Below, in pieces: positions 24,230 through 53,488 of a stretch of 64,000 nt of DNA. The notes under the pieces are model-generated. The model searched no databases and was not told the DNA's origin. It saw nothing but the letters and a program-made list of their open reading frames with translations. The translations under genes and the position numbers were made by a program. Origin of the DNA: an uncultured Thermoplasmata archaeon (lineage in GTDB: Archaea; Thermoplasmatota; Thermoplasmata; Halarchaeoplasmatales; Halarchaeoplasmataceae); the NCBI GenBank assembly GCA_964394465.1, contig CAYMXS010000001.1:33484-97483 (forward strand), read 5' to 3'. Position 1 is the first letter of the stretch; the number at the start of each line of letters is the position of its first letter.

Positions 24230-24332
24230 TTTTTATGCGACCAGAGGGTTTCGAACTTTAGTTCGTGAACAAAATTTTTTGGTTAATTTTGTGAGCGTTT
24301 GGAATCATGAGTGAAACGAATGATTCTGAACA

Positions 24333-26072: not shown

Positions 26073-26772
26073 GCGCTTCAACACCTTCGATAACCCATCG
26101 ACCGGAAGATGAATCGTAAAGGAACTTACCTTTGACCACGGCTGGATCGTCGTTCGTGATTGTGTAATCTTCACTGTAATCCCATCCCTTTATACTGCAG
26201 CTTAAGTAGTGATCGCCACCTTCTAGAGGTGATAGCTCGAATCTAGTGGTATTGTAATTACAGCTCAAATGGTGGACGTCGCCTCTAACTTTTACTTCCA
26301 TGTCTTCATACCACTCTGGATTTTCCAGTAGTGATGAGATAGGTGTGAAACTCGAATACGCTTTTTTAGTTATCTTCAGGTCCGAGATCCCGTTGACCTG
26401 GATGGTGTACTCCTCCTGGTACTCGCTCAACTGCCCAGTAACCAAGACCTCGGAACCGGACCTCAGTTTCTTCTTTTCCTCCAAAGGTAGGTTCTTGACC
26501 ACTTTGTCCTTAACCATCACATCTATGGAGGAAGTGGAGAACTGTTCTCTCAGCACTAAAAAGTAAGTGTCCTGATACTTATCTAACTCGGTTATGAATC
26601 CTCTAGTCTTGATGGATGTTCCCAGCATATTGGAGTCAATGTCAGATATCTCTATCTCTTTCGCGTCCTGCCGTGCGGTATAAACGTACAGAGAGGACGT
26701 TCCTATCAAAGAGACGACCACACATATCAGAAGTATCTTGTTCTTCTTGTTCTCACCCAATATATCCAGCAT
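26059..26772 (-). CDS. Membrane-anchored hypothetical protein (N-terminal TM helix plus a beta-rich extracytoplasmic domain)
   Basis: 237 aa. The TM helix is KILLICVVVSLIGTSSLYVY, followed by a soluble, probably OB/beta-sandwich-like domain. It ends 5 nt from orc1. Confidence 0.4.
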   Translation of the reverse strand: MLDILGENKKNKILLICVVVSLIGTSSLYVYTARQDAKEIEISDIDSNMLGTSIKTRGFITELDKYQDTYFLVLREQFSTSSIDVMVKDKVVKNLPLEEKKKLRSGSEVLVTGQLSEYQEEYTIQVNGISDLKITKKAYSSFTPISSLLENPEWYEDMEVKVRGDVHHLSCNYNTTRFELSPLEGGDHYLSCSIKGWDYSEDYTITNDDPAVVKGKFLYDSSSGRWVIEGVEAPTGH

Positions 26773-26777
26773 CTTAT

Positions 26778-27947
26778 CTATCCTATGAATTCAGTCAGTT
26801 TCTCCTCCAAGACCTCGGCGGGTATATCCGCCAGGGATACTTTGGTCGTTCTTCCAGAACCGTCCGATATCGTTTTGGTATCCAAGAGCCCTTCGTCGGC
26901 TAGAGTCTTGATATACTTCCAGAACTGTGTATGCCCCAGCTTCTTCTTCTCGTACTCCTCGCATATAATATTATACGTTTCTTCTATCTCCCCTGTCTGA
27001 GTATAGGACTGCTTCTTCAGTTTTCGAGTGGAAGCCAGAAGGATCAGTCTCTCCTGCTCGTTCAGTTTCTTCAATTTACGTTCCGTCATATAGGGGTCAA
27101 CTTCGGCCTTGGCCGATCTAACATCTTCTGGCTTTATCTGGTCCCGGCCGTCCATCTCTGCTATCAGTCCCGCTTTTTCTAAAAGTTCAATGCCGAACCT
27201 GGCGTCCCCTTTTCTTCCAGATATATCGGCTAGAAGAGACAGCTCGCTATCCTGGATGGCGCCCGGATAAAGAGCCATCTCTGCCCTCTGCTCCAGGATG
27301 GGATACATCTCTTCAGGATTGTATTTAGGAAACTTGATCCTGTTGCTCCTTTTAAAGGAACTCAGGGCGCTCTCATCCAGCAGTTCGAAGGCGTTCTTCT
27401 GTGAGATCAGGAACAGGGAAACGCTTCCCTGAGGTGCTACACCTTCCTCGTCGAATCTAGAGAGTAAGTAGATCAGTTCCGACCCTTCCTTCTGTATGAG
27501 GGCATCGGCTTCATCTAAAACTACGATAAGATGTGTGTTCCTCTCCTTTATCTTGCTGTCTAGGGTCTTCATCATCTCGTCCACGGAGAAGCCCCTGTCC
27601 GGAAAGCCCTTATCGAAGTGATGCACTATCTTCCACATGGCGGCGCTGTTGTTGTTCCTCCTTCGACAGTTCACCAAAACGTGGTCCAGGGCCTGTCCCT
27701 TCTCCTTTGCCCACTTCTTGAAGTCCATGCAGAAACGTTTGGCCGTTGCAGTCTTTCCTGTGCCTACGGGCCCGTGGAGGAAGACGTTCTGCGAGATCTC
27801 GGAATCCAGCACGCCCCTGTAGAGTCCGAACAGCTCGTTCATCTGCTCGTCCCGGTTTGGCAGTTCGTCTGGAACGTAATCGAATGACAGTTTCTTTCGA
27901 TTTTTTATGACTCGGCTAGCGCTGTCTCTAAAGCTCATCTTAACCAC
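26778..27947 (-). CDS. cdc6: Orc1/Cdc6 replication initiator (AAA+ plus a C-terminal winged helix)
   Basis: 389 aa. The N-terminal motif is YVPDELPNRDEQMNEL. LFLHGPVGTGKTA is Walker A and IVVLDEAD is Walker B. A C-terminal wH domain is present. Confidence 0.9.
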   Translation of the reverse strand: MVKMSFRDSASRVIKNRKKLSFDYVPDELPNRDEQMNELFGLYRGVLDSEISQNVFLHGPVGTGKTATAKRFCMDFKKWAKEKGQALDHVLVNCRRRNNNSAAMWKIVHHFDKGFPDRGFSVDEMMKTLDSKIKERNTHLIVVLDEADALIQKEGSELIYLLSRFDEEGVAPQGSVSLFLISQKNAFELLDESALSSFKRSNRIKFPKYNPEEMYPILEQRAEMALYPGAIQDSELSLLADISGRKGDARFGIELLEKAGLIAEMDGRDQIKPEDVRSAKAEVDPYMTERKLKKLNEQERLILLASTRKLKKQSYTQTGEIEETYNIICEEYEKKKLGHTQFWKYIKTLADEGLLDTKTISDGSGRTTKVSLADIPAEVLEEKLTEFIG

Positions 27948-36926: not shown

Positions 36927-39900
36927 ATGAAGCAATCCTCTAAAATTGTATCCCTCACGGTAGTGATGGCCCTAGTACTGCTTCTGGGAGCGGTATCTGG
37001 AGCCCAATGGACTCGATGGAATCAGGATCAACCTCAAGAGAATTCTAAGGAAGTTAATGACACACACCTGATGACGGAGGACGAAGTGGAACAGCTGAAG
37101 AAGAATGTAGGAATGTACCAGCCCGGAGAGAACTATAACGAGATAATCAACGGGCATGGAACTGGCTTAGCACCACCTTCTACAGAGGATTACAAGGAGA
37201 TGGAAGGCTCTGTAAAGGTGGTGGAACACGTGGACTCTAACGAGCCCTTATCCGGTTCGGTCGACTTGACCGAAGACCAGTACTTCCCGCCGATAGGGAA
37301 CCAGGGTTCTCAGGGTTCATGCGCATCCTGGTCTACCGCATATTATGCCAACACGTACATGCAGGCGAAGGCCAACGGATGGGACGTTTCTAGCGGAGGG
37401 GACGATCATTTGATGAGTCCTTCATGGGTCTACAACAAGGTGAACGGTGGGAGCGATGGTGGTTCAACCCTTGCGGACCCGATGGCCCTGGTAGAAACGG
37501 TCGGCAACGCTGATATGCAGACCATGCCCTACGACGATTCAGATCATATCTCTTGGGGAGACGAATCGGCTTGGCGGGACGCTCCGCAGCACAGGGCCCA
37601 AGATTATGAATCTACCAGTGTCAGCAACGTAGATGTGGTCAAGTCTTGGCTCTCAGATGGTTTCGTTGTCAGCATGGCCGTAGATGCGGATCAGTACAAC
37701 TTCGACGGTGACAACGTTCTCTCCTCACAGGAATACAATGCAGGCAGCCCGAATCACGCCAATACCGTCGTGGGATACGATGACAGCGTGAGTGATGACG
37801 GTGAAACCGGGGCCTTCAAGATAGCTAATTCTTGGGGTCAATCATGGGGTCCAAACGGTGATGGAACGTATTACATGACCTATGACTGTTTCCAGACCCT
37901 AGCCTACAGTTCGGCCTATCGTTATACCGGGTCATTGTACAACGGCACTACATATCCTCAGATGATAGGGGCAACGGAGTTGAGTTCCACCGGGCCAAGG
38001 GATGCAGAAGTCGAGCTTGGAGCGGGCGACCCAGACGATCCAAGCGATACTCACTCCCCACAGTGGGACGGCGGCTCCCACGACTTTCCGTCCTTCATGT
38101 GCTTCGACATGACCACTCTAGAAACCGATGATACTTATTCTCAGTACTACCTTCACATAGGCTCCGGTTCCGGCTCCAGCACTATCTCGTCCTTCCAGGT
38201 CGAGGCATACCCCACGGGATACACACCAGGAAACCCGGATAACACATCCGGTGAATCATCTGATACCCCGGCAGATACCCCCGCAACGGTAATTGTTGAC
38301 TTCCAGGGTGGCGGAGGAAACGACCCGCCGGATGCTGCGTTCACTTATTCCCCTGATACACCAGCCGTTGGTGAGACCGTACAGTTCACCGACCAATCCG
38401 AGGACCAGGACGGAGGTACCATAACCGATTGGTCCTGGAGCTTCGGTGACGGTTCCAGCAGTTCTTCTCAGGATCCGACCCATTCCTACAGTTCCGAGGG
38501 TACTTATACGGTAGAACTGAGCGTGACAGATGATGATGGGGCCACCGCCACGGCCTCCCAGACCATAGAAGTCACCAGCGATGGAGATGACGGCGGCGGT
38601 GGTGGTTCCTCTGAGATGGACGAAGATTATGAGGACGGAGCCTCGGGCTGGAGCACGCAAGGTCTCTGGCATCTGGTTTCTGACTCCGACCAGTATGGGG
38701 ACAGTCACAGCGGTTCCAATGCGATGTGGTATGGTAAAGACTCAACCGGAAACTACGATACCGGTTCGCAGACAACTGGTTCTCTGGTTTCGCCTTCGAT
38801 AGATCTAACTCAGGCTTCCCAAGCTCAATTGACCTTCTACCACTGGTACGAGACGGAGAGCTACGACGGTGAGTACGATAAGGTCATGGTTTCAGTCAAT
38901 GGGGACCAGGTTTACTATAGAGACTCGAGTGATCCCAATGTGGGCTCCGAAGGCAACTTCGTGCAGGAAACAGTAGATCTTTCCTCCTACGTAGGTCAGA
39001 CCATATCCGTCAGTTTCACCTTCGATTCCATGGACGGGACCTACAATGACTATCGTGGATGGTATGTCGATGATATAGCCGTGTCTTCAGATGACGGTGG
39101 CGGCGGTGGAGGAAACAACGCCCCAAGCGCTTCCTTCACTTATTCTCCGACCGATCCATCTCCGGGAGATTCGATCCAGTTCACCGATACATCTTCGGAC
39201 GGCGATGGAAGCATAAGTTCCTATTCATGGGACTTCGGTGACGGTTCCACGAGTTCATCTCAGAACCCCACTCACTCCTACGGCTCCGAAGGGACCTACA
39301 CGGTTTCATTGACCGTGACTGACAACGACGGGGCGACCGACACGGCCTCGCAGTCAATAGACGTGAGTTCCGGAGGCGGTGGCGGTTCCACCGTGATTGA
39401 CGATGATTTCGAAAATGGAGCCTCAGGCTGGAGCACTTCAGGTCTGTGGCATCTCGTTTCAGACTCCGACCAGTACGGCGATGCCAACAGCGGTTCCAAG
39501 GCGATGTGGTATGGCCAGGATTCTACTGGTAACTACGCTACGGGGTCCCGTACAACGGGGTCCTTGAGCAAATCTGTGGACCTGAGTGGAACCTCATCAG
39601 CTACCTTGAGCTTCTCTCACTGGTTCGAAACTGAGAATTACGACAATGGCCAGTATGATAAGGTCATAGTTACAGTGAACGGTAATCAGGTCTACTACAG
39701 AGATACGTCGGATTCCAACGTCGGTTCTGAGAACAACTTCGTGCAGGAAACCATAGACATATCATCCTATGCCGGTCAAACGGTGGATATCAAGTTCACC
39801 TTCGACTCCATGGACGACTACGACAACGACTACCGTGGCTGGTATGTGGATGATGTCAAGGTCACAGCGGACTCCGGTGGTGGAGGCGGTGGAAATAGTG

Positions 39901-40799
39901 CGCCTTCAGCATACTTCAGTTACTCCCCGTCGAATCCATCTTCAGGAGAAACGGTTCAGTTCACTGACTCGTCTTCGGACAGTGATGGAAGCATAAGTTC
40001 CTATTCATGGGACTTCGGTGACGGCTCAACGTCCTCACAGCAGGACCCCACACATTCATATGGGTCCGACGGTACCTACACCGTTACCCTAACTGTAACG
40101 GATAATGAAGGGGCTACCAGTTCGACTTCTAAGGATATCACGGTCGGAAGTGGGGGCGGCGGTTCAACCGTACTAGATGAAGACTTCGAAAATGGAGCGT
40201 CCAGCTGGAGCACTTCAGGTCTGTGGCATCTTGTTTCAGACTCCGACCAATATGGCGATGCCAACAGCGGTTCCAAGGCGATGTGGTACGGTCAGGATTC
40301 CACTGGAACTTATGATACCGGTTCACCGACGTCGGGTTCATTGAGTGCTTCCGTTGACCTGAGCGGTGCGTCACAGGCAGAACTTACTTTCCAGCATTGG
40401 TTCAAGACTGAAAGCTATGATGGTCAGTACGATAAGGTCATAGTTACGGTGAACGGAAACCAGGTCTACTACAGAGATACGTCGGATTCCAATGTTGGTT
40501 CCGAGAACAACTTCGTGCAGGAAACGATAGACATCTCATCCTATGCGGGTCAAACGGTGGATATCAAGTTCACCTTCGACTCAGTAGATGACTACAACAA
40601 CGGATACCGCGGCTGGTACGTGGACGATGTCAAGGTCACAACTGGTACCACCTCTCCGACGGCAGTAGAAAGCACTGATGACGGTAGCGCTCCTCTCCTC
40701 AGTATGAGCGAGCAATATACCTCTCTTGATGCCTTGGATCACATGAACGTTGATATCGAGATCGATACGGCAAGCTATTACCGTCGAAAACTCTTCTAA
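36927..40799 (+). CDS. Giant secreted multidomain protein 1: signal peptide, papain-like C1A cysteine protease, then three units of [PKD domain + 150-aa GLWH/RGWYVDD beta-sandwich-type module]
   Basis: 1290 aa. The N-terminal signal/TM is MKQSSKIVSLTVVMALVLLLGAVSGA. C1A catalytic residues are present: QGSQGSCASWSTAYY (Cys), HANTVVGYDD (His) and IANSWGQSWG (Asn). There are three PKD domains (WSFGDGSSSSSQDPTHSYSSEGTYTVELSVTDDDG and others). There are three modules of the form EDFENGASGWSTSGLWHLVSDSDQYGD..MWYGQDSTGNYDTGS..HWFETE.YD..YDKV.VTVNG.QVYYRD.SD.NVGSE.NFVQETIDISSY.GQTV.I.F.FDS.DDY.N.YRGWYVDDV. Confidence 0.85.
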   Translation: MKQSSKIVSLTVVMALVLLLGAVSGAQWTRWNQDQPQENSKEVNDTHLMTEDEVEQLKKNVGMYQPGENYNEIINGHGTGLAPPSTEDYKEMEGSVKVVEHVDSNEPLSGSVDLTEDQYFPPIGNQGSQGSCASWSTAYYANTYMQAKANGWDVSSGGDDHLMSPSWVYNKVNGGSDGGSTLADPMALVETVGNADMQTMPYDDSDHISWGDESAWRDAPQHRAQDYESTSVSNVDVVKSWLSDGFVVSMAVDADQYNFDGDNVLSSQEYNAGSPNHANTVVGYDDSVSDDGETGAFKIANSWGQSWGPNGDGTYYMTYDCFQTLAYSSAYRYTGSLYNGTTYPQMIGATELSSTGPRDAEVELGAGDPDDPSDTHSPQWDGGSHDFPSFMCFDMTTLETDDTYSQYYLHIGSGSGSSTISSFQVEAYPTGYTPGNPDNTSGESSDTPADTPATVIVDFQGGGGNDPPDAAFTYSPDTPAVGETVQFTDQSEDQDGGTITDWSWSFGDGSSSSSQDPTHSYSSEGTYTVELSVTDDDGATATASQTIEVTSDGDDGGGGGSSEMDEDYEDGASGWSTQGLWHLVSDSDQYGDSHSGSNAMWYGKDSTGNYDTGSQTTGSLVSPSIDLTQASQAQLTFYHWYETESYDGEYDKVMVSVNGDQVYYRDSSDPNVGSEGNFVQETVDLSSYVGQTISVSFTFDSMDGTYNDYRGWYVDDIAVSSDDGGGGGGNNAPSASFTYSPTDPSPGDSIQFTDTSSDGDGSISSYSWDFGDGSTSSSQNPTHSYGSEGTYTVSLTVTDNDGATDTASQSIDVSSGGGGGSTVIDDDFENGASGWSTSGLWHLVSDSDQYGDANSGSKAMWYGQDSTGNYATGSRTTGSLSKSVDLSGTSSATLSFSHWFETENYDNGQYDKVIVTVNGNQVYYRDTSDSNVGSENNFVQETIDISSYAGQTVDIKFTFDSMDDYDNDYRGWYVDDVKVTADSGGGGGGNSAPSAYFSYSPSNPSSGETVQFTDSSSDSDGSISSYSWDFGDGSTSSQQDPTHSYGSDGTYTVTLTVTDNEGATSSTSKDITVGSGGGGSTVLDEDFENGASSWSTSGLWHLVSDSDQYGDANSGSKAMWYGQDSTGTYDTGSPTSGSLSASVDLSGASQAELTFQHWFKTESYDGQYDKVIVTVNGNQVYYRDTSDSNVGSENNFVQETIDISSYAGQTVDIKFTFDSVDDYNNGYRGWYVDDVKVTTGTTSPTAVESTDDGSAPLLSMSEQYTSLDALDHMNVDIEIDTASYYRRKLF

Positions 40800-40973: not shown

Positions 40974-43900
40974 ATGGAATGGACGAAGAAAAAGTTGATA
41001 ACTTCAAGTTTGATCTTGGCCGCTTTGCTAGTGTTGGGCTCTTTTTCCACTCCCGCACTGGACCTTATAAATGATTCGAACACGGATGATGCTGGGCTAT
41101 CTCAAGGGACGGTCGAGAGTGATGTAGAGACAGAGGAGGACACTAAGAGTGTTCCCTCCAGTTCAGACCTAGACTCTGACGGGTCTACCGCCGAAACTAC
41201 AGATGGATCCAAGTCTAAATCCACCACCAGCGGTGAAAGCGACAAGTTCTGCATAGAGATACACAAGATCGAGGAGTTGGATAATATGGATGCCGTTGGT
41301 TCGGCTGAGTGGTACTACGAACTGAAGGTATCCGACGATGGAGGCTCGACCTGGGAGGTTCGAGAGTCATCAAAACCTTTGGACGACAGTAAAGATACCA
41401 TGATCGTGGATAACGAGCATTTCTTCGACGTGACCAATGACAAGATACTGTTCCGGATGACCCTAAAAGATGAAGATTCCGCTCTAGACGACACCGCGGA
41501 CATATCAGAACGGCCGGACAAGGGCTGGTTCGACGACGACGGGAAAGTTTTCAAGGGCGTCTACTGGATGGAGAACCACACCGTGGGGGGAGACCGAACT
41601 GAAGAGAACGAGATACACTGGTTGAAGACCAGCGGTGAGTGGGATGATAGTGGAGACGATGAGGATACGAATCTGCTGTTCAACGTTTACGAGAAGGGCA
41701 GACCGGACATAAAAAGACCTATCTTTACGGTGCCGAAGATACAGGAGAAGGGGAAGAACATAGAGGTCACTGTCACCTCCAGCGAGGAACCCAATACCTG
41801 GAACGTCGAGCTCTTCACCCCTTCTAGATATCCAACAGATTTGGACATCGAGGATATAACCAAACTGAAAGACGATAGATGGAGATTGGAGTGTGAGATA
41901 CCGGGGTCCATGGAGTCTAGACTTTACGATCTGGTCGTCAGCAATGAGTTCGGATCAGACAGTGAGTACCACGCAGTACAGATAGTGGATGAGATAGACG
42001 ACGAGTTCAACTTCATCCATATGTCGGACTTACACGTGGGATACGATGAGGATTTCTATTCCATACCGAACGTGAAGCAGGCCATCAGAGAAGCTAATCT
42101 GATAAACCCAGACTTCGTTTTCATAACTGGAGATGTATGTGACAAGGTCATGGGATGGTACAAAGACCAGCATCCAGACCCCATAGATCAGGACAGGAGA
42201 ACCCTCCAGTTACTCCAGATGTTTGACGTCCCCATCTACGTGGGCAGCGGCAATCACGACTGGTCCTACGACGGCTATAACGACGAGAGGCAGAATATAG
42301 AGTCCTACAAGAGATGGATCAATCCTTATCTCAACTTCTCGTTCAACTACGGCGATCATCATTTCTCTTACATGGATACCAAAAGCTACGTTGGGTGGTT
42401 GAACCCGGACAGTCCCATGGGGATGGAGGGTATCGATTGGCTCAAGAACGATCTGGAGCAGAACATAGACAAGACCCAGCGTTTCGTTGGGTATCATCAT
42501 CCCGTGTATCCAGACAATTTCGATGACGAGAGTGTTAGGTCTGAATTGGCCCAAACGCTCATAGATTACAACGTATCCATGGCTTTGACCGGACACACCC
42601 ATATAGAGTCCATCCATGATGCCTACGGAAACGAGCAGACCGGAGAGATGGGAAACCCGGCCCAACCGATACATGCTACAGTCTCGGATATAGAGGGGGG
42701 CAACAATTACAGACTAGTAAGGGTCCAGGGAAACGATATAGCCGACTATACCTACGATGAAGATGGAGACGGCGAGAGGCCGGCGAACTCCAGTATACCA
42801 ACAGGTGAATTATCCGTCGAGTACACCCCATCCAACAGTGGTGATAACAGTAAGGTGGTAGCCACGATCGAGAACGGTCTCTACGAGTACTTTGAAGACG
42901 CCTCCATAAGCTTCAAGGTCCCTGACGACGGGAGCGATTACACCGTTGAGAACGGTACGGTAAGGAACATGAAAGATATCGGGGCCTATCTCAGATTCAA
43001 CGTTTTGACCGATGTCCCTGAAGATAACACTAAAAAAGTGACCATCAGACCGTCAAACTACCTGGAAGCTGATTTCACCTGGTCCCCGGACGATCCTACC
43101 GTGCAGGATACGGTCCAATTCGATCACAGCGGGAATAAAAACGATATAAGTTCGTTTTCGTGGGACTTCGGGGACGGTTCGACTTCAACTGAAACTTCGC
43201 CATCACATGGTTATTCATCACCTGGAACGTACACCGTAGAACTGACCGTGGAGGATGCGGACGGCAAAACAGACACATCGACCAAACAGATAACGGTCAG
43301 CCCTGAGGATGAAAACGTAAATAAACTGAACGAGGACTTCGAAGGGGACGTTGACTGGTCAACCAGTGGATTGTGGCATCTAACTACCGAGAACGACCAG
43401 TACGGCGATGCGAACAGCGGTTCCAATGCCATGTGGTACGGTCAGGATTCCACCGGAGATTACGATACAGGTTCACATACCACTGGTTCTCTTGTATCAC
43501 CTACTCTCGATCTTTCTGAAGCTTCCGAAGCGGAATTGACTTTTCAGCACTGGTTCGAGACGGAGAACTGTGACGACGGCCACTGGGATAAGGTCATAGT
43601 GAGAGTGAACGATCAGCAGGTCTATTACAGAGATACCACGGACGACAACATGGGCTCGGAAGATAATTTCGTAAGGGAGACGATAGACATCTCGGAATAC
43701 ACGGGCCAGACCATCGAGATCCAGTTCGTATTCGACTCGGTAGACGATTACGATAATGCCTACAGAGGATGGTACGTAGACGACGTGAAAGTCACAGCGG
43801 ACTCCGGCGGGGATGAGGACGATGACGGCGATGAAGACGATGAAGACTCTGGCTCGGTGGTAATCTCAGAGGTATACTACGACGTAGAAGGTACGGACTC

Positions 43901-44807
43901 AGACGGCGAGTACATCGAGATATACAACCAGGGCTCAGAAGCAGTGGATCTTTCTGGATGGACTATAGGAGACGATACCAGTGCCAACTACACCTTCGAA
44001 GACTCCCTTGCTATACCGGGACACAGTTATCTAACGGTCTGCAGGGACAAGGCTACCTTCGAAGACCGGTACAATAAAAGTCCGGACGCTTGGGACCTAG
44101 CCCTTTCACTGAACAACGGCGGGGATACACTTACACTGTACGATACAAACGGCCAGACAGTAGATAAGGTGGGCTGGGAACAGAACGGTTGGAGCAACCT
44201 TTCAGCCTCTACAGGAGAGGTCATAAGAAGGGAAGATACTTCTGAAGATACGGACACCGTTGAAGACTGGGTCGTGAGTCAACCGGACCCGCAGGTCTTG
44301 AGCGATGGGGAGTCCTCCACTGGAAAACTCTTAAGCGAGGACTTCGAAGGAGAGCATGACTGGTCGACCAGTGGATTGTGGCATAGTGTAACAGAAAACG
44401 ATCAATACGGTGACAGTCACAGCGGTTCTCATTCGATGTGGTACGGTCAGGATTCAAAAGGAAACTACGATACGGGTTCACGCACCAATGGAATTTTGAG
44501 TTCTCCCACGGTAGATCTATCGAGCGTTTCAGACGCTACGCTGAGATTTCGACACTGGTTCAGGACTGAAAGTCACGAAGATAGCTATGACCACTGTGAA
44601 GTGAAGGTGAACGGAGAGCAGGTATACTTCAGAGACACATCAGATGAGAATGTGGGTTCTGAAGACAACTTCGTCAAGGAAACGATCGATATATCGTCAT
44701 ATGCGGGACAAACGGTCCAAATAGAGTTCGTCTTTGATTCGGTAGACGATTATGACAACGGGTATAGAGGCTGGTACATAGACGACGTGGCAGTCACAAC
44801 AGGTTGA
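40974..44807 (+). CDS. Giant secreted multidomain protein 2: signal peptide, calcineurin-like metallophosphoesterase, PKD domain, GLWH module, lamin-tail domain (LTD), GLWH module
   Basis: 1277 aa. The N-terminal signal is MEWTKKKLITSSLILAALLVLGS. The metallophosphoesterase motifs are FIHMSDLHVG, FITGDVCD, GNHDW and GHTHIES. The PKD domain is FSWDFGDGSTSTETSPSHGYSSPGTYTVELTVEDADG. The LTD is VVISEVYYDVEGTDSDGEYIEIYNQGSEAVDLSGWTIGDD...GGDTLTLYDTNGQTVDKVGW. Two C-terminal modules both end in RGWY(V/I)DDV. Confidence 0.85.
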   Translation: MEWTKKKLITSSLILAALLVLGSFSTPALDLINDSNTDDAGLSQGTVESDVETEEDTKSVPSSSDLDSDGSTAETTDGSKSKSTTSGESDKFCIEIHKIEELDNMDAVGSAEWYYELKVSDDGGSTWEVRESSKPLDDSKDTMIVDNEHFFDVTNDKILFRMTLKDEDSALDDTADISERPDKGWFDDDGKVFKGVYWMENHTVGGDRTEENEIHWLKTSGEWDDSGDDEDTNLLFNVYEKGRPDIKRPIFTVPKIQEKGKNIEVTVTSSEEPNTWNVELFTPSRYPTDLDIEDITKLKDDRWRLECEIPGSMESRLYDLVVSNEFGSDSEYHAVQIVDEIDDEFNFIHMSDLHVGYDEDFYSIPNVKQAIREANLINPDFVFITGDVCDKVMGWYKDQHPDPIDQDRRTLQLLQMFDVPIYVGSGNHDWSYDGYNDERQNIESYKRWINPYLNFSFNYGDHHFSYMDTKSYVGWLNPDSPMGMEGIDWLKNDLEQNIDKTQRFVGYHHPVYPDNFDDESVRSELAQTLIDYNVSMALTGHTHIESIHDAYGNEQTGEMGNPAQPIHATVSDIEGGNNYRLVRVQGNDIADYTYDEDGDGERPANSSIPTGELSVEYTPSNSGDNSKVVATIENGLYEYFEDASISFKVPDDGSDYTVENGTVRNMKDIGAYLRFNVLTDVPEDNTKKVTIRPSNYLEADFTWSPDDPTVQDTVQFDHSGNKNDISSFSWDFGDGSTSTETSPSHGYSSPGTYTVELTVEDADGKTDTSTKQITVSPEDENVNKLNEDFEGDVDWSTSGLWHLTTENDQYGDANSGSNAMWYGQDSTGDYDTGSHTTGSLVSPTLDLSEASEAELTFQHWFETENCDDGHWDKVIVRVNDQQVYYRDTTDDNMGSEDNFVRETIDISEYTGQTIEIQFVFDSVDDYDNAYRGWYVDDVKVTADSGGDEDDDGDEDDEDSGSVVISEVYYDVEGTDSDGEYIEIYNQGSEAVDLSGWTIGDDTSANYTFEDSLAIPGHSYLTVCRDKATFEDRYNKSPDAWDLALSLNNGGDTLTLYDTNGQTVDKVGWEQNGWSNLSASTGEVIRREDTSEDTDTVEDWVVSQPDPQVLSDGESSTGKLLSEDFEGEHDWSTSGLWHSVTENDQYGDSHSGSHSMWYGQDSKGNYDTGSRTNGILSSPTVDLSSVSDATLRFRHWFRTESHEDSYDHCEVKVNGEQVYFRDTSDENVGSEDNFVKETIDISSYAGQTVQIEFVFDSVDDYDNGYRGWYIDDVAVTTG

Positions 44808-44953: not shown

Positions 44954-47900
44954 ATGAAAAGAAACAACCTCAAGATTTTTGCGCTCGTGGCCGTTCTATC
45001 CATATTTGTTTCAACGGCGAGCATAGCCTTCACCCCATTGGGAAGTAGTCCGTGGCTTGCCGATGAAGAGGAAGGTGAGGAGTACATAGGGGCGATCATA
45101 CCCTCTAATTACCTCATAGGTAACACTTCTTCCGATTCGGTGGAGTATGGCTTCGAACTGTTCGTCGGTTACAAAGAGAATGAATCCTTGGAAGAATTAA
45201 AGGTGTTCGAACTGAAGGATGCCGAGGATATCGGTTCGGTCATAGGTGGGAAGTTCAGGATAAGCTACGATGGACAGAAACACGTCCTAGAAGAGACGAT
45301 AAACGACAGTTTTGAGGAGGTCATCGAAAGCGAGATGGACGAGGTCATAGACGACCTGTTCAAGAACATAGAGGTAGAGTTCAAATCCGCCAGCCTGACC
45401 ATCGAAGATAACACCTACGGGATAGGCTGTACCGATGAGGAGGACTTCATGTGGATAATGCCCAACGAGTCTTATCCGTCTTTCTTCAACAAGGTGAGGG
45501 TGAAAGGAACAGTTCTAGACGAAGACGCCCTCGAGTCGATAATAGAGAATTTCTCTGCCTTTACCGAAGATTTCATCGATCCCAGTCTTGTTACTGAGGT
45601 GAGCGAGGATCTAGAGATGAATTATACGGGCCTGTTGACCAACTTCATCTTTGTCTCCGACTTTCAATACTTGGGGGATAGAAACGTCGTCGGCGATGTA
45701 GTCGATACGATCACTCCAAGGGACATAGATATAGACGTGCACAAGTCCTCCTCCGCTGAGGGAATAAAAGCGCTGGGAAACGGCTCCTGCGATGCGGCCA
45801 TGACCACCAGAAAAGTGACCCAGGAAGAAGAAGACCTCTATCCAGACTGTGATTTTAACTCCTATCTTATAGCTAGAGACGCTGTTTCTTTGATAGTGGA
45901 TGAAAGAGTTTACGAGGAAGGGGTATCGGACCTAGATAAAGAGGAGATACACGATATATACACCGACGAGATAGACAACTGGAAGTACCTGGGAGGTCCG
46001 AACGAGCCGATACACACGATCGGAAGGACAGAGAGCTGCGATGCACAAAGTACATTTCAACAGTTCATAGGGGAGGGATCGACCTCGGCTGATAATCACG
46101 TAAAGGAAGGCGAAAAGGTGATAGACGAGGTCAAAGATGTTTCAGGGAACGAGTACAGCATAGGTTACGTCAGCACCGGTTACCTAGATGATGATATAAG
46201 ATCACTGAGCGTTCACGGGGTCAAACCGGACAAGACGGCCATCAATACCGAGCAGTACCCCATGACTAGGGAACTTTATGTTTATACCGACGGCGAACCC
46301 ATGGGGTTAGAAAAAGAACTCATAGATATCCTACTAAGCAGAGAAGGTCAGGATGTAGTTGAACAGGAAGGCTTCATCAACGTTACAGAAGGAAACTACA
46401 ACGGTCTAGAGAAGAGTGTAAGCGGTAGACTATCCGTTAAGGGCTCCATGGTGACTGATAAGGTGGTGAATAAACTTTCAGATAGACTCCTGGAGAACAA
46501 CCCTGAAAACGAGAACGTCTCCGACGGTTTTCTCACTTCCGGCACCTCTTGGGTACAAGATACAGGTAGGAGGTCCAACACTGGTATAGCCGTCGTAGCG
46601 TCAAAGGATAACACTTGGAGCGATAACGAGTTCTGGTTCGTGTTCTACGACCAGGGGAGATTTAGAGGTTTCCCGGGCATCTGTGAGATGAACGTCTCCA
46701 GGATGCACTACGAAACGCTGTTCAGGGAGGTCAGTTTCTTGGATGAGGACGACTTCGACCTGGGCATAGATATGAACGTGGAAGTGAACCTCGGCATATT
46801 GAAGAGGATGGAAACCACGGATTATGAAGAGACGACCTTACCTGAGATGTGGTCTCTGCTAGAAGACAACGACCAGTACAGCCAGGTGAAGAACGTAGAG
46901 ACCACTACGTATTCCGCCGTTTTGGACCTTCAGACCGCTTCTAACGTCCTATCAGACCTCTTCGGCATGGACAGCGATGTCACCGAGGATATAGGTGATC
47001 TGACTTCGGATAAGAATCCAGCTATAGCATTGATGCTGGACGGGACCGCCCCCTCTGAATATGAAGAAAACGATGAGTCCATCTGGGACTATACTGGCTT
47101 CGCCATCATCCCGCATTATAGAGAAGGAGATTCCCACTTCAACTATCTAGATATCGAAGGAGTTCTCTACGACCCGGTCACTTACTTCGAACTCGACTCC
47201 TGTGATCATAACGTACCATTGATCATCGCCGACGGATATCACGAGTCTAACGAGGTCAACACGGAGGTCCAATTCAGCTCGGCCAGCGTCGTCGTAGGTA
47301 GAGATACGTACGGCGTTGGATTTACCGATGAAACCAATTATCTCTGGACTGCCCAGGGAGAAGCACTTCCCACTGTCCTCAACGACGTTACCGCTCGAGG
47401 AGTCATCATGCCCACCGATGTTATCGTGGCGATGCTTGAAGAAGTGACCGGTAATATATTCGAGGGCTTCGGCCTTTCAGACCTGGAAACCTACTCGGAC
47501 AATTACAGCGTCAACATATACGGACCGGAGACCAAGTTCCTCTTCGTCTCGGATATAGAGCACGAACCGGACAGGGTGATAGAAGGCGACGTCTTAGACA
47601 CGATAACTCCGGAGGATCTAGATCCGCTCACCTCCAACTACACGACCGAGGGCACGCAATGGCTCCAGAACATGGCCGATAGAAGTGATACGGGACTTGC
47701 CATACTGACCGAGGAGGACAGCAGCATAGAACACAACAAGATATGGTTCCTGCTTTACGATGTCAGGAGATACGACCATTTCCCGGGTAAATGCCAGATG
47801 AAGGTTTCCGTTTCCCATCTGCCAACTCTGCTTGCCAGGAACATAAATCTGGACGATGATTCCTTCGACTTCGGCATGGATATAGACTTCGAGGTCAATC

Positions 47901-50900
47901 TAGGCATCATAGTTGGTGCTAGAGGTCGGCGTTACCAAAGAGAAAGCGTACATGATCTCTGGTCTCTGATCGAAGATGACCATCATCACTCACAGCTGAA
48001 GAACGTAGAGGTCAACAGCTACTGTTTCGTCGTGGACCTGGATACGGTAACGGACTTCGTGGGAGATATGTTGAACATAAGTGACGGTACGGCAAGAAAA
48101 CTAGAGACCATGACTACCCTCAAGAATCCCGCCTTCGTATTCATGCTGGATTCCGATACGCCGGAACAGATAGACGATGAGAACGTTTGGCACTACACCG
48201 GGATCGGTATAATACCGGACTACGAGAAAGAACAGGCAGGCTTCAGATACTTAAGGCTGAGAGGTGTCCTCCACGACCCGGTTCAATACTTAAACCTCAG
48301 CTCTTATATGGACAACATACCATTACTGCTCGTAGACAGTTACAGGGAATCGGATCATAACAACGCGGTGGAAGAGTTCACATCCTGCAGCCTGGTCTTC
48401 GACGAAGATACGTACGGCATGGGCTGGTCGAACGACGATCACTATCTCTGGATGGCCCAGAACGAGAGCTATCCCACCGTTTTCAACGATGTGAGGGCCG
48501 AAGGCGTTCTGTTCCCGACGAACCTTTTAGTCTCTCTGGCCCAAAATGTGAGCGAGCAGGTCTTCGGTGTGATAGACAGTGACAAGACGGAGAACATATC
48601 CTCAGAGTATGGTATAGAGACGAACTACACGAAGATACTCTTCGTTGACCATCTGGATTACATTGGTAACACGGAAGTACAGGGCGACGTGATAGATACC
48701 ATCACCCCGGAAGACATGCATGATCTGGCATCTGAGTTCAGGACCCCTGGTATAGACTGGATGAAGGACATGGTCGAAGAACTCGGCATAGGTCTTGCGA
48801 TATTTTCAGAGAAGGACAACAGCATAAGCGATACGGACCTCTGGTTCATCCTATACGATTCTGAAGAGTACGAAGATTTCGAGGGTATATGCAACCTGAG
48901 CGTTTCGGTTTCCAGCCTGACCTACCTGATAGAGAACGTGACCGATCTGGGAGACGATGCCTTCGACTTCGATCTGAATATATCGTTCTCCGTCAACATC
49001 GGCATCTTGACGGAACTGGAGAACGACGACTACATGCAGAGTTCGGTGACCGGCCTGTGGGATAGGTTGGACCAACCCCATACATACATGCAGGTGGACT
49101 CGGTCAGCGCAAAGGCGTACAGTCTTGTAGTAGACCTAGACAGCGTGATAGACGGTCTCGTGGACATATTCGAGATGGATAGAGGAACGGCCAGCACTAT
49201 CGACAGCATAACCACGTTCAAGAATCCAGCCTTCGCATTCTTGTTCGACGAGAGATCGGGAGAGATGTTCAACGGGAGCGGAACGGCATTCTGGAAGTAC
49301 GGAGCTATAGGCATAATCCCGGATTACGGGGTGGGTGAATCCAATACAAGAGTCCTGCGAGTAGAGGGCGTCCTGTACGACCCTGTCAAGTATTTCGACG
49401 AAGATGCGGATGAATGGAACGTTCCTTTGGTCGTTGTTGACAGCTATCACGAGGCTGAGAAAGATATACAGGACGTCTCCGTCAAGGAAGTTGTCCAGGA
49501 AGACCTAGATATGAACGAGATAGGTAACTTCGGGTGGGCTCACGTGCAGATAGACGCGGTCACTACGGGCTTATCACTCCAGAAACTGATCGAGCTGATA
49601 CCGACTGGAGATCCGACTACAGGACTTATCCAGAAGATAATCTGTGACTTCCCGCTCAAGATAGGGGTCTACGACGGGATGCAGATGGAGGCCATCAATC
49701 AGAGCTATCACGTGCCCATAGTTTATCCGACCATAGGGGAGGCACCCACACACTTCAGCCTGAACATAACCAGAGTGGAAGGTATCTACGTGAGTTTCAA
49801 CGGAACGATGCTGGACAGGGTCAAGGATCATCTAGTAGACAACATAATGCAGCAGCTTGCCGCCATAAATGAGGAACTGGAGGACATATTACCTTCCTAC
49901 ATAGAGGAAAAGCTGTACGAATACGTGGACCTGATATTCGACTCGATACATGTGGCTCCTGGTTTCCTATTTGCTTACTCCATGGAGGACATAGACAACG
50001 AGCCCGCTGAGTTGGAGTTCATGAGCCCTCAGCAGGATGAGGAAGTTGAACCTCAAGACTTCAATATAACCTTCAGCACCACTGACAGTCCGGACGTAGT
50101 GGCCTGGGTGACCCTGAACGTGACCAAGTTCTCCGACTCGGGCGATATAACCGTGAACAACATCCCGATACCGGTCTTCAGAGACGGCATATGGTCTACG
50201 GGAGACACGTGGTGGTGGGGATACGTACAGGATTATATAATCGAGCCATACGGTACAGGTGATTATGAAGTAACGATAAAGGCACATGACTTCCAGGGTT
50301 ATTCCTACTCCATAATAAGGGAGTTCCAGATAGTGGACGATGCACCGGATCCCATCCCTCCAGAATCACACGTAGATCCGTTGCCGGAATATAATCGAAA
50401 CATGTCCTTCGATGTGAGCGCCACGGCATCCGATGATGAAGGAGTTGATGCCGTATCTTTATACTACAGGCACAACGGAGGTGAATGGAAGCACTACGAT
50501 ACGGACGACTGGGGCTTCAACGGCTGGGACTGGTCGTTCAATACCTATTATAGAGGCGATGGGGAGTACCAGTTCTATACCAGGGCCATAGACGACTCCG
50601 GCAACTACGAAGAGATACCGAACGGGAGCGACGAAGTGACCAAGGTGGATTACTATGCACCAGAAACGGAGGCGACTGGACCAGAAAACGTGAACGGATT
50701 CTCCTTCGACCTGAGCTATGAGGTCCAAGATAAGACTTACTCATCCGGCCTTGAATCCGTCACTCTTTACTATACCAGGAACGGAGGCTGGACATGGGAA
50801 GAATACGGAGAGGACACGGATTGCAGCAGTCCTATGACCGTCACGGTAAACGAAGAAGGCACCTACGGCTGGCAGTTCGTCGCGGAAGATAGAGCTGGCA

Positions 50901-53488
50901 ACATTGAATCCTTTGCAGGAGGCGTGGAGCAGGAGACCGAAGTCGAGGCCTCTGAAGAGACCATACTAGAGGAAGATTTCGAAGGTTCTTCCGACTGGTC
51001 TACTAGTGGTTTATGGCATAAAGTTGAAGAGTCCGACCAGTACGGTGACAGCAACAGTCAAACTCATTCGATGTGGTACGGTCAGGATTCCACAGGCAAC
51101 TACGATACCGGTTCTCAAACGACCGGCGCTTTGAGCAAGACCGTCGATCTGAGCGGCGCCACACAGGCCGAGCTGATCTTCCACCACTGGTATGAGACGG
51201 AGAGCTATGATGACGGAAGCTACGACCGACTCAAAGTCACTGTAGACGGACAGGAGGTCTATTACAGAGACAGTTCTTACGATAACGTCGGTTCTGAAAA
51301 TGATTACGTGAAGGAAGGGATAGATATATCCGATCATACTGGTCAAGAGGTAGAGATAAGATTCGTTTTCGACTCTCTAGACGGCTACAACAACGGCTAC
51401 AGAGGCTGGTATATAGACGACGTTAAGGTGACAGCTGATTCCAGCGGTGGGGATAACAGTGCTCCTTCGGCCGGTTTCAGTTTTGCCCCTACCGATCCAA
51501 CAACGGGAGAGACTGTCCAGTTCACTGAAACATCGGAGGATGCCGACGGCACCATAGCTTCTTACTCATGGGACTTCGGTGACGGGTCGAGTTCTACGGA
51601 AGCTAGTCCATCGCACACTTTCTCCTTGTCTGGCACTTACACGATAGGATTGACCGTCACAGATAACGATGGAGCAGAGGACTCCACCAGTGAAGAAATA
51701 ACCGTACAATCCGACAATGATGGGGACACCACTACTCAGCTAGATGAAGATTTTGAAGACGGTGCTTCAGACTGGTCCACCAGCGGATTGTGGCACCTTG
51801 TTTCCGAAAGCGACGAGTACGGAGACAGCAGCAGTCAAACTCACTCGATGTGGTATGGTCAGGACTCTACAGGTGATTACGATACCGGTTCTCGAACGAC
51901 CGGCCAACTCACTTCTCCCAGCATCGACCTGACCCAAGCTTCACAGGCGGAACTGACCTTCCAGCACTGGTTCGATACGGAGAACTACGACGGAGGTAAT
52001 TATGACAAGGTAAAGGTAACGGTGAACGGAGACCAGGTCTACTACAGAGACACCTCAGATGATAATGTTGGCTCCGAGAACAATTTCGTCAACGAGACCA
52101 TAGACCTTTCCTCTTATGTCGGTCAAACCATACAGTTGAAGTTCATATTCGATTCCGTGGACAAATACACTAACGATTATCGGGGCTGGTATGTAGATGA
52201 TATAAGAGTTAACACTGAAAGTGGCGAAAACTCCGCACCTACGGCTGATTTTGATTACTCACCTGACCAACCTGAAAAAGGACAGACGGTTCAATTCACA
52301 TCCACCTCTTCAGATGAAGACGGCACAATCGCTTCCTACAGCTGGGACTTCGGAGACGGGAGTGTATCAGACGAACAGGATCCAACGTACAGTTATTCCT
52401 CTACGGGTACTTACGACGTCTCCTTGACCGTGACCGATGAAGACGGTGATTCGGATTCTATCACGAAGACGATAGTTATAAGCAGCGAAGAGGAAGGCAT
52501 GGACACGGTATTCAAGGAGGACTTCGAAGGTTCATATGACTGGTCTACAAGCGGGTTATGGCATCCTGTTTCCGAAAGCGACGAGTACGGAGACAGTAAC
52601 AGTCAAACTCACTCGATGTGGTACGGACAGGACTCTACAGGCGATTACGATACCGGTTCACATACGACCGGCCAACTCACTTCTCCCAGCATCGACCTGA
52701 CCCAAGCTTCACAGGCGGAACTGACCTTTCAACACTGGTTCGAGACCGAGAACCACGACGGTGGATACGACAAGGTCAAAGTCTTGGTTAACGGAGAGCA
52801 GGTCTACTACAAGGATACCTCGGATGAAAACGTCGGCTCAGAGAACGAATTCGTGAAGGAGACCATAGACCTTTCATCCTTCGTAGGCCAGACGATACAG
52901 GTGACCTTCGAGTTCGACTCCATAGATGATTATGAGAACGGTTACAGGGGTTGGTACGTGGACGATGTAGAAGTGAAAGCAGAAAGCAGTGACGAAGGCC
53001 AGGAGATATACTCCCAGTCCTTCGAGACATCCGAGGGCTGGAGTTCCTCCGGTTTATGGCACCCCGTCTCTGAGGAAGACCAGTATGGGGACAGCAAAAG
53101 CGGTTCTAATTCGATGTGGTACGGTCAGGATTCCACAGGCAACTACGACACTGGCTCTAGGACCACGGGGGATCTCACATTGAACTCCGTCGATCTGACC
53201 GGTGTTGACAACGCGGAGTTAAGTTTTGCCCACTGGTTCGAGACGGAGAACCACGAAGGAGAATATGACCTGTGTAAGGTCAAGGTGAACGGAGAGCAGG
53301 TCTACTACAAGGATGCATCAGATGAGAACGTGGGTTCTGAGGGCAATTTTGTCACTGAGAACATAGACATATCCGATTATGCTGGACAGACCGTGGACAT
53401 AGAGTTCACCTTCGATTCCGTCGACGATTACGATAACGCGTATCAGGGCTGGTACATAGACGATGTGGCCATAACTTCGGAACAGTGA
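44954..53488 (+). CDS. Giant secreted multidomain protein 3 (2844 aa): signal peptide, about four copies of a novel ~330-aa repeat (the first with an inserted PstS-like/PBP_like_2 substrate-binding-type domain), Ig-like beta-sandwich domains, then four GLWH modules with two PKD domains
   Basis: The N-terminal signal is MKRNNLKIFALVAVLSIFVSTASIAF. Repeat markers are TYG(I/V/M)G(C/F/W)(T/S)D...(W/M)...ESYP(S/T)(F/V)(F/L)N.V...G..., about four times. The PBP-like insert spans nt 45704-46514: IKALGNGSCDAAMTTR..LIARDAVSLIVDE..EEIHDIYTDEIDNWKYLGGPNEPIHTIGRTE..EYSIGYVSTGYLDD..YPMTRELYVYTDGEP.GLEKELIDILLSREGQDVVEQEGFI, which is the PstS/PBP_like_2 pattern. Two Ig-like repeats are present (VSLYYRHNGGEW...YQFYTRAIDDSGNYE). 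The four modules end in RGWYIDDV, RGWYVDDI, RGWYVDDV and QGWYIDDV. Two PKD domains contain WDFGDGS. Confidence 0.85.
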   Translation: MKRNNLKIFALVAVLSIFVSTASIAFTPLGSSPWLADEEEGEEYIGAIIPSNYLIGNTSSDSVEYGFELFVGYKENESLEELKVFELKDAEDIGSVIGGKFRISYDGQKHVLEETINDSFEEVIESEMDEVIDDLFKNIEVEFKSASLTIEDNTYGIGCTDEEDFMWIMPNESYPSFFNKVRVKGTVLDEDALESIIENFSAFTEDFIDPSLVTEVSEDLEMNYTGLLTNFIFVSDFQYLGDRNVVGDVVDTITPRDIDIDVHKSSSAEGIKALGNGSCDAAMTTRKVTQEEEDLYPDCDFNSYLIARDAVSLIVDERVYEEGVSDLDKEEIHDIYTDEIDNWKYLGGPNEPIHTIGRTESCDAQSTFQQFIGEGSTSADNHVKEGEKVIDEVKDVSGNEYSIGYVSTGYLDDDIRSLSVHGVKPDKTAINTEQYPMTRELYVYTDGEPMGLEKELIDILLSREGQDVVEQEGFINVTEGNYNGLEKSVSGRLSVKGSMVTDKVVNKLSDRLLENNPENENVSDGFLTSGTSWVQDTGRRSNTGIAVVASKDNTWSDNEFWFVFYDQGRFRGFPGICEMNVSRMHYETLFREVSFLDEDDFDLGIDMNVEVNLGILKRMETTDYEETTLPEMWSLLEDNDQYSQVKNVETTTYSAVLDLQTASNVLSDLFGMDSDVTEDIGDLTSDKNPAIALMLDGTAPSEYEENDESIWDYTGFAIIPHYREGDSHFNYLDIEGVLYDPVTYFELDSCDHNVPLIIADGYHESNEVNTEVQFSSASVVVGRDTYGVGFTDETNYLWTAQGEALPTVLNDVTARGVIMPTDVIVAMLEEVTGNIFEGFGLSDLETYSDNYSVNIYGPETKFLFVSDIEHEPDRVIEGDVLDTITPEDLDPLTSNYTTEGTQWLQNMADRSDTGLAILTEEDSSIEHNKIWFLLYDVRRYDHFPGKCQMKVSVSHLPTLLARNINLDDDSFDFGMDIDFEVNLGIIVGARGRRYQRESVHDLWSLIEDDHHHSQLKNVEVNSYCFVVDLDTVTDFVGDMLNISDGTARKLETMTTLKNPAFVFMLDSDTPEQIDDENVWHYTGIGIIPDYEKEQAGFRYLRLRGVLHDPVQYLNLSSYMDNIPLLLVDSYRESDHNNAVEEFTSCSLVFDEDTYGMGWSNDDHYLWMAQNESYPTVFNDVRAEGVLFPTNLLVSLAQNVSEQVFGVIDSDKTENISSEYGIETNYTKILFVDHLDYIGNTEVQGDVIDTITPEDMHDLASEFRTPGIDWMKDMVEELGIGLAIFSEKDNSISDTDLWFILYDSEEYEDFEGICNLSVSVSSLTYLIENVTDLGDDAFDFDLNISFSVNIGILTELENDDYMQSSVTGLWDRLDQPHTYMQVDSVSAKAYSLVVDLDSVIDGLVDIFEMDRGTASTIDSITTFKNPAFAFLFDERSGEMFNGSGTAFWKYGAIGIIPDYGVGESNTRVLRVEGVLYDPVKYFDEDADEWNVPLVVVDSYHEAEKDIQDVSVKEVVQEDLDMNEIGNFGWAHVQIDAVTTGLSLQKLIELIPTGDPTTGLIQKIICDFPLKIGVYDGMQMEAINQSYHVPIVYPTIGEAPTHFSLNITRVEGIYVSFNGTMLDRVKDHLVDNIMQQLAAINEELEDILPSYIEEKLYEYVDLIFDSIHVAPGFLFAYSMEDIDNEPAELEFMSPQQDEEVEPQDFNITFSTTDSPDVVAWVTLNVTKFSDSGDITVNNIPIPVFRDGIWSTGDTWWWGYVQDYIIEPYGTGDYEVTIKAHDFQGYSYSIIREFQIVDDAPDPIPPESHVDPLPEYNRNMSFDVSATASDDEGVDAVSLYYRHNGGEWKHYDTDDWGFNGWDWSFNTYYRGDGEYQFYTRAIDDSGNYEEIPNGSDEVTKVDYYAPETEATGPENVNGFSFDLSYEVQDKTYSSGLESVTLYYTRNGGWTWEEYGEDTDCSSPMTVTVNEEGTYGWQFVAEDRAGNIESFAGGVEQETEVEASEETILEEDFEGSSDWSTSGLWHKVEESDQYGDSNSQTHSMWYGQDSTGNYDTGSQTTGALSKTVDLSGATQAELIFHHWYETESYDDGSYDRLKVTVDGQEVYYRDSSYDNVGSENDYVKEGIDISDHTGQEVEIRFVFDSLDGYNNGYRGWYIDDVKVTADSSGGDNSAPSAGFSFAPTDPTTGETVQFTETSEDADGTIASYSWDFGDGSSSTEASPSHTFSLSGTYTIGLTVTDNDGAEDSTSEEITVQSDNDGDTTTQLDEDFEDGASDWSTSGLWHLVSESDEYGDSSSQTHSMWYGQDSTGDYDTGSRTTGQLTSPSIDLTQASQAELTFQHWFDTENYDGGNYDKVKVTVNGDQVYYRDTSDDNVGSENNFVNETIDLSSYVGQTIQLKFIFDSVDKYTNDYRGWYVDDIRVNTESGENSAPTADFDYSPDQPEKGQTVQFTSTSSDEDGTIASYSWDFGDGSVSDEQDPTYSYSSTGTYDVSLTVTDEDGDSDSITKTIVISSEEEGMDTVFKEDFEGSYDWSTSGLWHPVSESDEYGDSNSQTHSMWYGQDSTGDYDTGSHTTGQLTSPSIDLTQASQAELTFQHWFETENHDGGYDKVKVLVNGEQVYYKDTSDENVGSENEFVKETIDLSSFVGQTIQVTFEFDSIDDYENGYRGWYVDDVEVKAESSDEGQEIYSQSFETSEGWSSSGLWHPVSEEDQYGDSKSGSNSMWYGQDSTGNYDTGSRTTGDLTLNSVDLTGVDNAELSFAHWFETENHEGEYDLCKVKVNGEQVYYKDASDENVGSEGNFVTENIDISDYAGQTVDIEFTFDSVDDYDNAYQGWYIDDVAITSEQ

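Follow-up and report, generated by a model that had tools for sequence, protein, structure and literature searches.

The PstS family (PF12849, PBP_like_2; TIGR02136) consists of substrate-binding proteins (SBPs) that are free or lipid-anchored. In one of them, PBP-1 of Clostridium perfringens (PDB 4Q8R), phosphate is bound by S11, T12, S13, S41, S59, R125, S129, G130 and T131, and backbone NH groups provide five of the 14 hydrogen bonds (PMC5381212). A PstS-type protein may also be found on a cell-surface structure, with a role beyond delivery to the permease, as in the PstS-containing surface appendages of Pseudomonas aeruginosa; that protein is free, canonical and bacterial, with neither covalent nesting nor permutation (PMC2242829). 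A further term of comparison comes from protein engineering, in which periplasmic binding proteins (PBPs) have been turned into switches by insertion and circular permutation, the latter bringing the termini close to each other for nesting in a host loop.

In this work, we analyzed a stretch of 64,000 nucleotides (the window, to which all nucleotide positions refer unless a locus is named) belonging to an uncultured Thermoplasmata archaeon (contig CAYMXS010000001.1, positions 33,484 to 97,483), and in particular the gene of a 2844-amino-acid (aa) protein in which a PstS-type domain is nested in a repeat unit. This very protein is recorded as P0001 in the NCBI metagenome-assembled genome (MAG) GCA_905333785.1 and is the sole member of its own 90% cluster. 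The window is archaeal, since it carries an archaeal RNase P RNA, Cdc6/Orc1, Spt5-NGN and FtsZ, and its proteome is acid-shifted, with cytoplasmic proteins at an isoelectric point of about 4.5; the 2844-aa protein, with 20.4% D+E versus 5.1% K+R, is a giant and very acidic archaeal surface or secreted protein.

The nested domain shares the fold family of PstS proteins by sequence and, like 4Q8R, keeps S11, S41, R125, a hydroxyl group at position 59 and the YPxxR and IGY motifs. Unlike them, it appears to be circularly permuted and is embedded in a much larger protein; unlike PBP-1, it has CDA in place of the SGT loop, Met in place of Thr12, a TIGR02136 score under the cut-off and no Pst permease genes nearby. 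The engineered switches use the same device with the PBP as host, whereas here the PBP is the guest and the design is natural; a natural permuted PstS nested in a repeat is, in fact, a rare natural counterpart of the protein engineers' design. The reading that we consider likely is a joint one, i.e., the triplication of an OB-like module (OB, oligonucleotide/oligosaccharide-binding), the nesting of a permuted PstS-type domain in one of the copies, and the use of this domain as a pendant head of altered specificity or for docking.

The repeat array and the nested domain

The N-terminal 1500 residues of the protein are a triplication of a module of about 370 aa. The comparison of the protein with itself (chunked BLASTP) showed matches between units, with E-values from 1e-43 to 1e-56 and a shift of 366-372 residues, and revealed three full units (aa 138-768, insert included, 769-1140 and 1141-1505; positions 45365-49468), which are 35-40% identical and in a four-way alignment share the markers TYGxG, ESYPxFFN, GDVxDTITP, KNPAF and IIPxY. 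A tandem-repeat or low-complexity artefact was ruled out, the units being only 35-40% identical and each of them conserved with respect to distant relatives. The supposed fourth copy (aa 1446-1592) matches only positions 1-147 of the repeat profile, and an identical partial match trails the single unit of nearly all the relatives described below; hence, this region is a conserved downstream module rather than a truncated repeat, and it opens with a further copy of a small "W.Y..AIIPDY...GVLYD" element. The original prediction, made from the letters of the window, was therefore right on the existence of the repeat and on its markers, but its period of about 330 aa was too short and its count of about four copies one too high.

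The host module is interrupted over aa 257-522 (266 aa), between DTITPR (aa 251-256) and VSDGFLTSGTSW (aa 522-533), at site ~120 of ~370, while the same flanks are only about 14 residues apart in units 2 and 3 and in all the relatives examined. In the structural model of unit 2, the equivalent site (residues ~188-199) is a loop of lower predicted local distance difference test (pLDDT) score between a strand (175-185) and a helix (200-211), and the length of the loop at this site varies across the family. The interrupting sequence matches PBP_like_2 over aa 257-463 (E 2.7e-22, Pfam) and the PstS family model TIGR02136 over aa 256-476 (E 1.1e-40, NCBIfam); its 80-90 bits are well over the PBP_like_2 cut-off of 27, and its 140-149 bits are below the TIGR02136 cut-off of 206.6. 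Thus, unit 1 carries a PstS-type domain, nested in a variable loop on its surface. This agrees with the original proposal of a PstS/PBP_like_2 insert lying within a repeat and not between repeats, its estimated length of about 270 aa being corrected to 266.

The insert has probably been resident in the genome for a long time. The reading frame rejoins the host at the homologous residue, with the host loop almost fully kept; the codon usage of the insert equals that of the rest of the gene (distance 0.376 vs 0.383±0.035 for equal-sized windows), its acidity is the same, and only its GC content at third codon positions is slightly lower.

The order of the segments within the insert is not the canonical one, with β1 first. 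Indeed, in native order only positions 37-266 of PBP_like_2 are matched, and the β1-α1 segment lies after the C-terminal helix. When aa 488-522 were moved before aa 260-480, the PBP_like_2 match extended to positions 10-266 of 267 (89.8 vs 84.3 bits) and the TIGR02136 match from positions 65-294 to 40-294 (148.9 vs 144.8 bits), and the re-ordered insert could be aligned end to end with 4Q8R (residues 6-245). In a control with ten variants, in which the real tail was compared with six shuffled tails and three unrelated 35-mers, the real tail scored best and gave the sole alignment reaching beyond profile position 59, the others scoring 142.5-147.6 bits.

The strongest evidence for a permutation comes from a comparison with P0038, a complete, uncharacterised metagenomic lipoprotein of 303 aa found on two contigs (loci L010, 481-1392, and L011, 53-964) and itself a circularly permuted PstS. 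Its sequence starts with ISREDGSGTR, runs to ...SREGQDIVEASGFI, continues through a linker of about 12 aa and ends with SGKLTVAGSSS...NPDADIELQ. One high-scoring segment pair of BLASTP (37% identity, E 3e-21) aligns the insert, in its native order, with P0038 straight through the junction between native C- and N-terminus, and a second one aligns the start of the insert with the P0038 sequence after the junction region. Both proteins have a linker between their native C- and N-termini; however, P0038 is cut at the hinge just before ISREDGSGTR, stands alone with a lipoprotein signal and keeps all nine phosphate ligands, whereas the insert is nested and is cut elsewhere. In a four-way alignment of the insert with 4Q8R, P0037 and P0038 its ends, once rejoined (NNPE/DIDIDV), fit the canonical KKPDVSIEI turn, which places the cut in the α1-β2 loop. 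All the segments of the parent fold are present, with the native termini joined by a linker, and these alignments strongly support the interpretation of the nested domain as a circular permutant, which enters at β2, runs to the native C-terminus, passes through a 14-aa linker and ends with β1-α1. The permutation had escaped the original prediction.

Since the points of entry and exit flank the former α1-β2 loop, they should be neighbours in the parent fold, and such adjacency is the geometry required for a nested insertion. Moreover, β1, α1 and β2 belong to one lobe (the N-lobe) of the flytrap fold; the domain should then be a pendant head on a stalk, whose hinge closure would not be transmitted to the host module. 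This would also set it apart from the engineered switches, as allosteric coupling would not be expected with both new termini in one lobe. The case offers an instance from nature in which circular permutation makes the nesting of a domain possible, i.e., the device used by engineers for binding-protein switches, and P0038 surfaced alongside it as a second, independent permuted PstS. Natural permuted PstS proteins also exist outside the window, as P0038 shows, and no paper linking circular permutation with PstS was found in the open-access literature.

The module family and its fold

An exhaustive HMMER search with the repeat profile over 1.84 billion cluster representatives retrieved 32 of them, P0001 included (19 at E<1e-30), and six further metagenomic loci of the family were found. 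The module is the hallmark of a small and uncharacterised family of archaeal surface proteins with an N-terminal anchor; the loci carrying organism names are MAGs of Methanomassiliicoccales and of the DHVE2 group. The relatives are 700-2000 aa long and share a charged N-terminal tail, one transmembrane helix, a cap, one unit and the downstream module, beyond which the distal domains vary (fn3, PPC, Big, PKD, TSP3). The sequence motifs of the family are NIEV..S.S.VY..YTFG, GDV.D.ITP, LWF, F.NPAF, AIIPD and GVLYD, followed by the GWAYV...GPTY module. The three units of P0001 score 570-640 bits each as members of this family (P0006-P0036), and the downstream module is matched too; nevertheless, P0001 departs from the family norm of one unit and no insert at the ITP loop in having three units and the 266-aa insert.

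An insert at the ITP loop was present in none of the 31 other representatives or 11 extra loci, and PBP_like_2 was found by Pfam in none of the 31. Elsewhere the unit has been multiplied independently, to two copies in P0017 (L020) and to two or three diverged ones in P0031. No operon-based clue comes from the genes around five of the relatives, which have nothing in common. At the P0018 locus (L019, 11956-17184, minus strand), an archaeal family member lies beside a giant Peptidase_C1 protein of 1742 aa, which echoes one of the genes upstream of the 2844-aa ORF (open reading frame; p1, see below) and may be a coincidence. As for word-indexed searches, the one with unit 2 missed even P0001, which is a representative there, so that negatives of this kind were not read as absence; with the family profile only P0029 was recovered and with the insert two PstS proteins.

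The unit has no Pfam or NCBIfam match in the 2844-aa protein and no Pfam match in any of the 31 relatives, and the family profile found no relative among PDB sequences. The original statement that the repeat matches nothing recognised is therefore accurate for these three collections, but it must be qualified, both because 31 other representatives exist and because the fold, of OB-like α+β type, is not new. What emerges is a small module family of archaeal surface proteins which has neither a Pfam or NCBIfam model nor a solved relative.

The fold was predicted with AlphaFold for aa 700-1145, using a family alignment of 23 sequences; the model of unit 2 has a pLDDT of 72 and a predicted template modelling score (pTM) of 0.71. 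In this model, the small β element at the N-terminus (first 70 residues) is disordered, while the one at the C-terminus is confidently packed on the core; since the element that packs is the one following the core, the structural unit corresponds to aa ~770-1139, in keeping with the repeat phase as it had first been read. The best Foldseek matches were multi-OB proteins (p204 HINab, TEBP-α, LEF-3, RADX, CST), aligned over about 450 columns with template modelling (TM) scores of only 0.17-0.28. The model contains what appears to be a closed β-barrel of five strands, a helix lying between the third and the fourth, as expected of an OB fold, and we conclude that the unit should hold at least one OB barrel and that it probably consists of several OB-like barrels in a row, with helices among them. 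The described OB sequence families (tRNA_anti-codon, tRNA_anti-like, BOF) gave no Pfam or NCBIfam match on the unit, either in P0001 or in the 31 relatives. The possibility of three homologous OB barrels was considered and received no sequence support from hhalign among the sub-segments.

Known multi-OB proteins, such as RPA, Stn1/Ten1, the HIN-200 tandem OB, baculovirus LEF-3 and the anticodon-binding domains of AspRS and AsnRS, have no sequence relationship to the unit. They are cytoplasmic or nuclear and handle nucleic acid, whereas the 2844-aa protein is extracellular or surface-located, and the whole-unit TM-scores are low (0.17-0.28). The predicted multi-OB architecture would be unusual in extracellular proteins and points to polymer binding.

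The phosphate pocket and the alternative readings

At the nine columns of the PBP-1 phosphate ligands, the insert has S, M, V, S, T, R, C, D and A, whereas 4Q8R, P0037 and P0038 retain all nine positions, S/T exchanges allowed, in the four-way alignment. The side-chain chemistry is lost at four of the nine positions, five ligands being left, and the SGT anion loop reads CDA. In particular, T12M, S129C and T131A remove hydrogen-bond donors and G130D places a carboxylate at the N-terminus of the anion-cradling helix; as for the valine in place of S13, other PBPs have a similar hydrophobic residue there (PMC5381212). Such a remodelled pocket (SGT to CDA, Thr to Met) offers a compact case for the loss or repurposing of a very selective anion site.

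As a separate observation, all three cysteines of the insert (aa 279, 299 and 362; positions 45788-46042) precede an aspartate (SCD, DCD, SCD); one of them replaces the ligand Ser129 and, together with the change of Thr12 to Met, makes the changed pocket residues of a metal-binding kind.

The original prediction envisaged the nested domain as a working phosphate or oxyanion sensor, or receptor, on a surface array. In its favour are the strong PstS-family match, with PstS proteins 30-37% identical to the insert, S11, S41, S59 (as Thr) and R125, which the comparison with a PstS structure found to be retained, backbone NH hydrogen bonds that could persist as in PBP-1, and the metallophosphoesterase gene next door. 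The same comparison disclosed the substitutions T12M, S13V, S129C, G130D and T131A in a pocket that the three comparators keep whole, the TIGR02136 cut-off is missed, and pstC, pstA and pstB are absent from the six-frame translation of the window, whose sole ABC (ATP-binding cassette) system is of FecCD/Peripla_BP_2 type (20192-23213). A classical phosphate receptor is thus unlikely, because the ligands are changed and the window has no Pst permease or ATPase, and this part of the prediction is not supported. The nested domain would most likely be a binding head of altered specificity or a docking domain rather than a high-affinity orthophosphate receptor; indeed, such a well-preserved fold, in full accord with the host proteome, suggests that the domain retains some role, such as a changed ligand or a protein contact.

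It might also be speculated, with a confidence as low as that given to the sensor, that the domain is a retooled receptor, whose Met/Cys/Asp pocket would bind a metal ion or a phosphorylated or cationic compound and which, on a multi-OB stalk of a class not recognised before that binds extracellular polymers, would be part of a surface scavenging apparatus together with the adjacent protease and phosphoesterase. If this were true, the protein would provide the first case in nature of a permuted SBP that was grafted into another domain and took on a new function.

Somewhat less probable than the sensor is a different view of the architecture, according to which the PBP-like region is an ordinary bead between repeats or sub-domains, truncated at its N-terminus and not permuted. 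The site follows the apparent last strand of an OB barrel and could, on the model, be a sub-domain junction; in addition, the native-order match lacks profile positions 1-36, and a pairwise phmmer control of the tail was not significant (92.3 bits vs 93.1±1.6 for shuffled tails). On the other hand, in about 40 relatives, as well as in P0017 and P0031 with their duplicated units, the evolutionary unit always extends across the site, the pTM of 0.71 favours one compact unit, and the tail aligns with β1-α1 both through the P0038 junction and in profile space. Moreover, a type II PBP lobe without its central β1 strand is not expected to fold.

The failure of the phmmer control to discriminate also weighs against the joint reading that we favour, and other points must be set beside it. 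The gains obtained by re-ordering are modest (4-6 bits), and the tail alone has no Pfam match and only a chance match in the PDB. The pendant geometry is inferred, as is the way in which β1-α1 would pack; of the 370 residues of the unit only about 100 can be aligned with a solved OB domain, any count or delimitation of the barrels is tentative, and hhalign detected no mutual similarity among three sub-segments of the unit. Scans for close relatives of units 2-3 and of the insert retrieved none, and neither they nor the exhaustive scan yielded an orthologue with the insert; our findings concern one protein of one MAG lineage, for which function is predicted from context only, and the gene neighbourhoods of the relatives are not conserved.

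Lastly, the view of the insert as an assembly chimera, or as a relic in decay that plays no part, though in keeping with the single MAG lineage and the lack of an insert-bearing orthologue, is very improbable, since an assembly chimera or a recent foreign graft hardly fits a codon usage and acidity equal to the rest of the gene and a frame rejoining the host at the homologous residue, in a host loop left nearly intact, while the exact protein is recorded on more than one contig (three in the cluster table; contigs of 139,815 and 101,319 bases were seen) and the core PBP-fold motifs are well kept (E 1e-40).

Coordinates and neighbouring genes

The features of the protein and of the two genes upstream of it are listed in Table 1.

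Table 1. Position of the features of the 2844-aa protein and of its two upstream paralogues in the window.
Feature	Position	Strand	Basis
Neighbouring paralogue p1 (1290 aa): Peptidase_C1 head and the same MAM/PKD cassettes	36927..40799	+	domain search
Neighbouring paralogue p2 (1277 aa): Metallophos phosphoesterase, lamin-tail domain, MAM/PKD cassettes	40974..44807	+	domain search
ORF of the 2844-aa surface protein (P0001)	44954..53488	+	ORF list, translation
N-terminal hydrophobic segment (aa 7-29), signal peptide or signal anchor	44972..45040	+	translation
N-terminal cap (aa 44-137), long form of the small "IIP...GVLYD" β element	45083..45364	+	alignment, profile
Repeat unit 1, part a (aa 138-256), ending in GDVVDTITPR	45365..45721	+	self-BLASTP, alignment, profile
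PstS-type domain, first segment (aa 257-476), putatively strand β2 to native C-terminal helix; PBP_like_2 positions 37-266	45722..46381	+	Pfam, NCBIfam, alignment with 4Q8R
Putative linker joining native C-terminus to native N-terminus (aa 477-490, VTEGNYNGLEKSVS)	46382..46423	+	alignments
Putative displaced β1-α1 (aa 491-518, GRLSVKGSMVTDKVVNKLSDRLLENNPE) and return to host (aa 519-522)	46424..46519	+	profiles, alignments
Repeat unit 1, part b (aa 523-768)	46520..47257	+	self-BLASTP, alignment, profile
Repeat unit 2 (aa 769-1140), the modelled unit	47258..48373	+	self-BLASTP, profile, AlphaFold
Repeat unit 3 (aa 1141-1505)	48374..49468	+	self-BLASTP, profile
Conserved downstream module (aa 1506-1800; GWAHV...P.K.G.YDG...YHVP motifs), in all single-unit relatives	49469..50353	+	profile, relatives
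C-terminal array: weak Ig-like matches, four InhA-like MAM domains, two PKD domains	50354..53485	+	Pfam, self-comparison

Both genes upstream of the 2844-aa ORF encode exoproteins, the head of p1 being a papain-family protease and that of p2 a calcineurin-like phosphoesterase, and the MAM/PKD cassettes of both share about 60% identity with the C-terminal ones of the 2844-aa protein. The three genes resemble a paralogous cluster with swapped heads. It is probable that p1, p2 and the 2844-aa binder form a trio of adjacent exoproteins, sharing their MAM/PKD cassettes, that would act on extracellular polymers.

Some other features of the window deserve a mention. The archaeal RNase P RNA (189 bits) lies at 24802-25142 on the minus strand, and a tRNA-Glu(CTC) gene at 24154-24230 on the plus strand. 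On the minus strand (26059-27947), the Cdc6/Orc1 gene is beside that of a small OB-fold (tRNA_anti-codon-like) protein, and this region may be the neighbourhood of a replication origin. The FecCD system consists of a Peripla_BP_2/FecCD/ABC_tran operon (20192-23213, plus strand) of the iron-siderophore or cobalamin uptake type. A cation-efflux (CDF) transporter is encoded at 17921-19174 on the minus strand with a fused C-terminal Nitro_FeMo-Co (dinitrogenase iron-molybdenum cofactor) domain. Finally, this archaeal genome encodes, at 5313-6464 on the plus strand, an S-adenosylmethionine synthetase whose three Pfam domains (S-AdoMet_synt_N/M/C) are of the bacterial/eukaryotic type.

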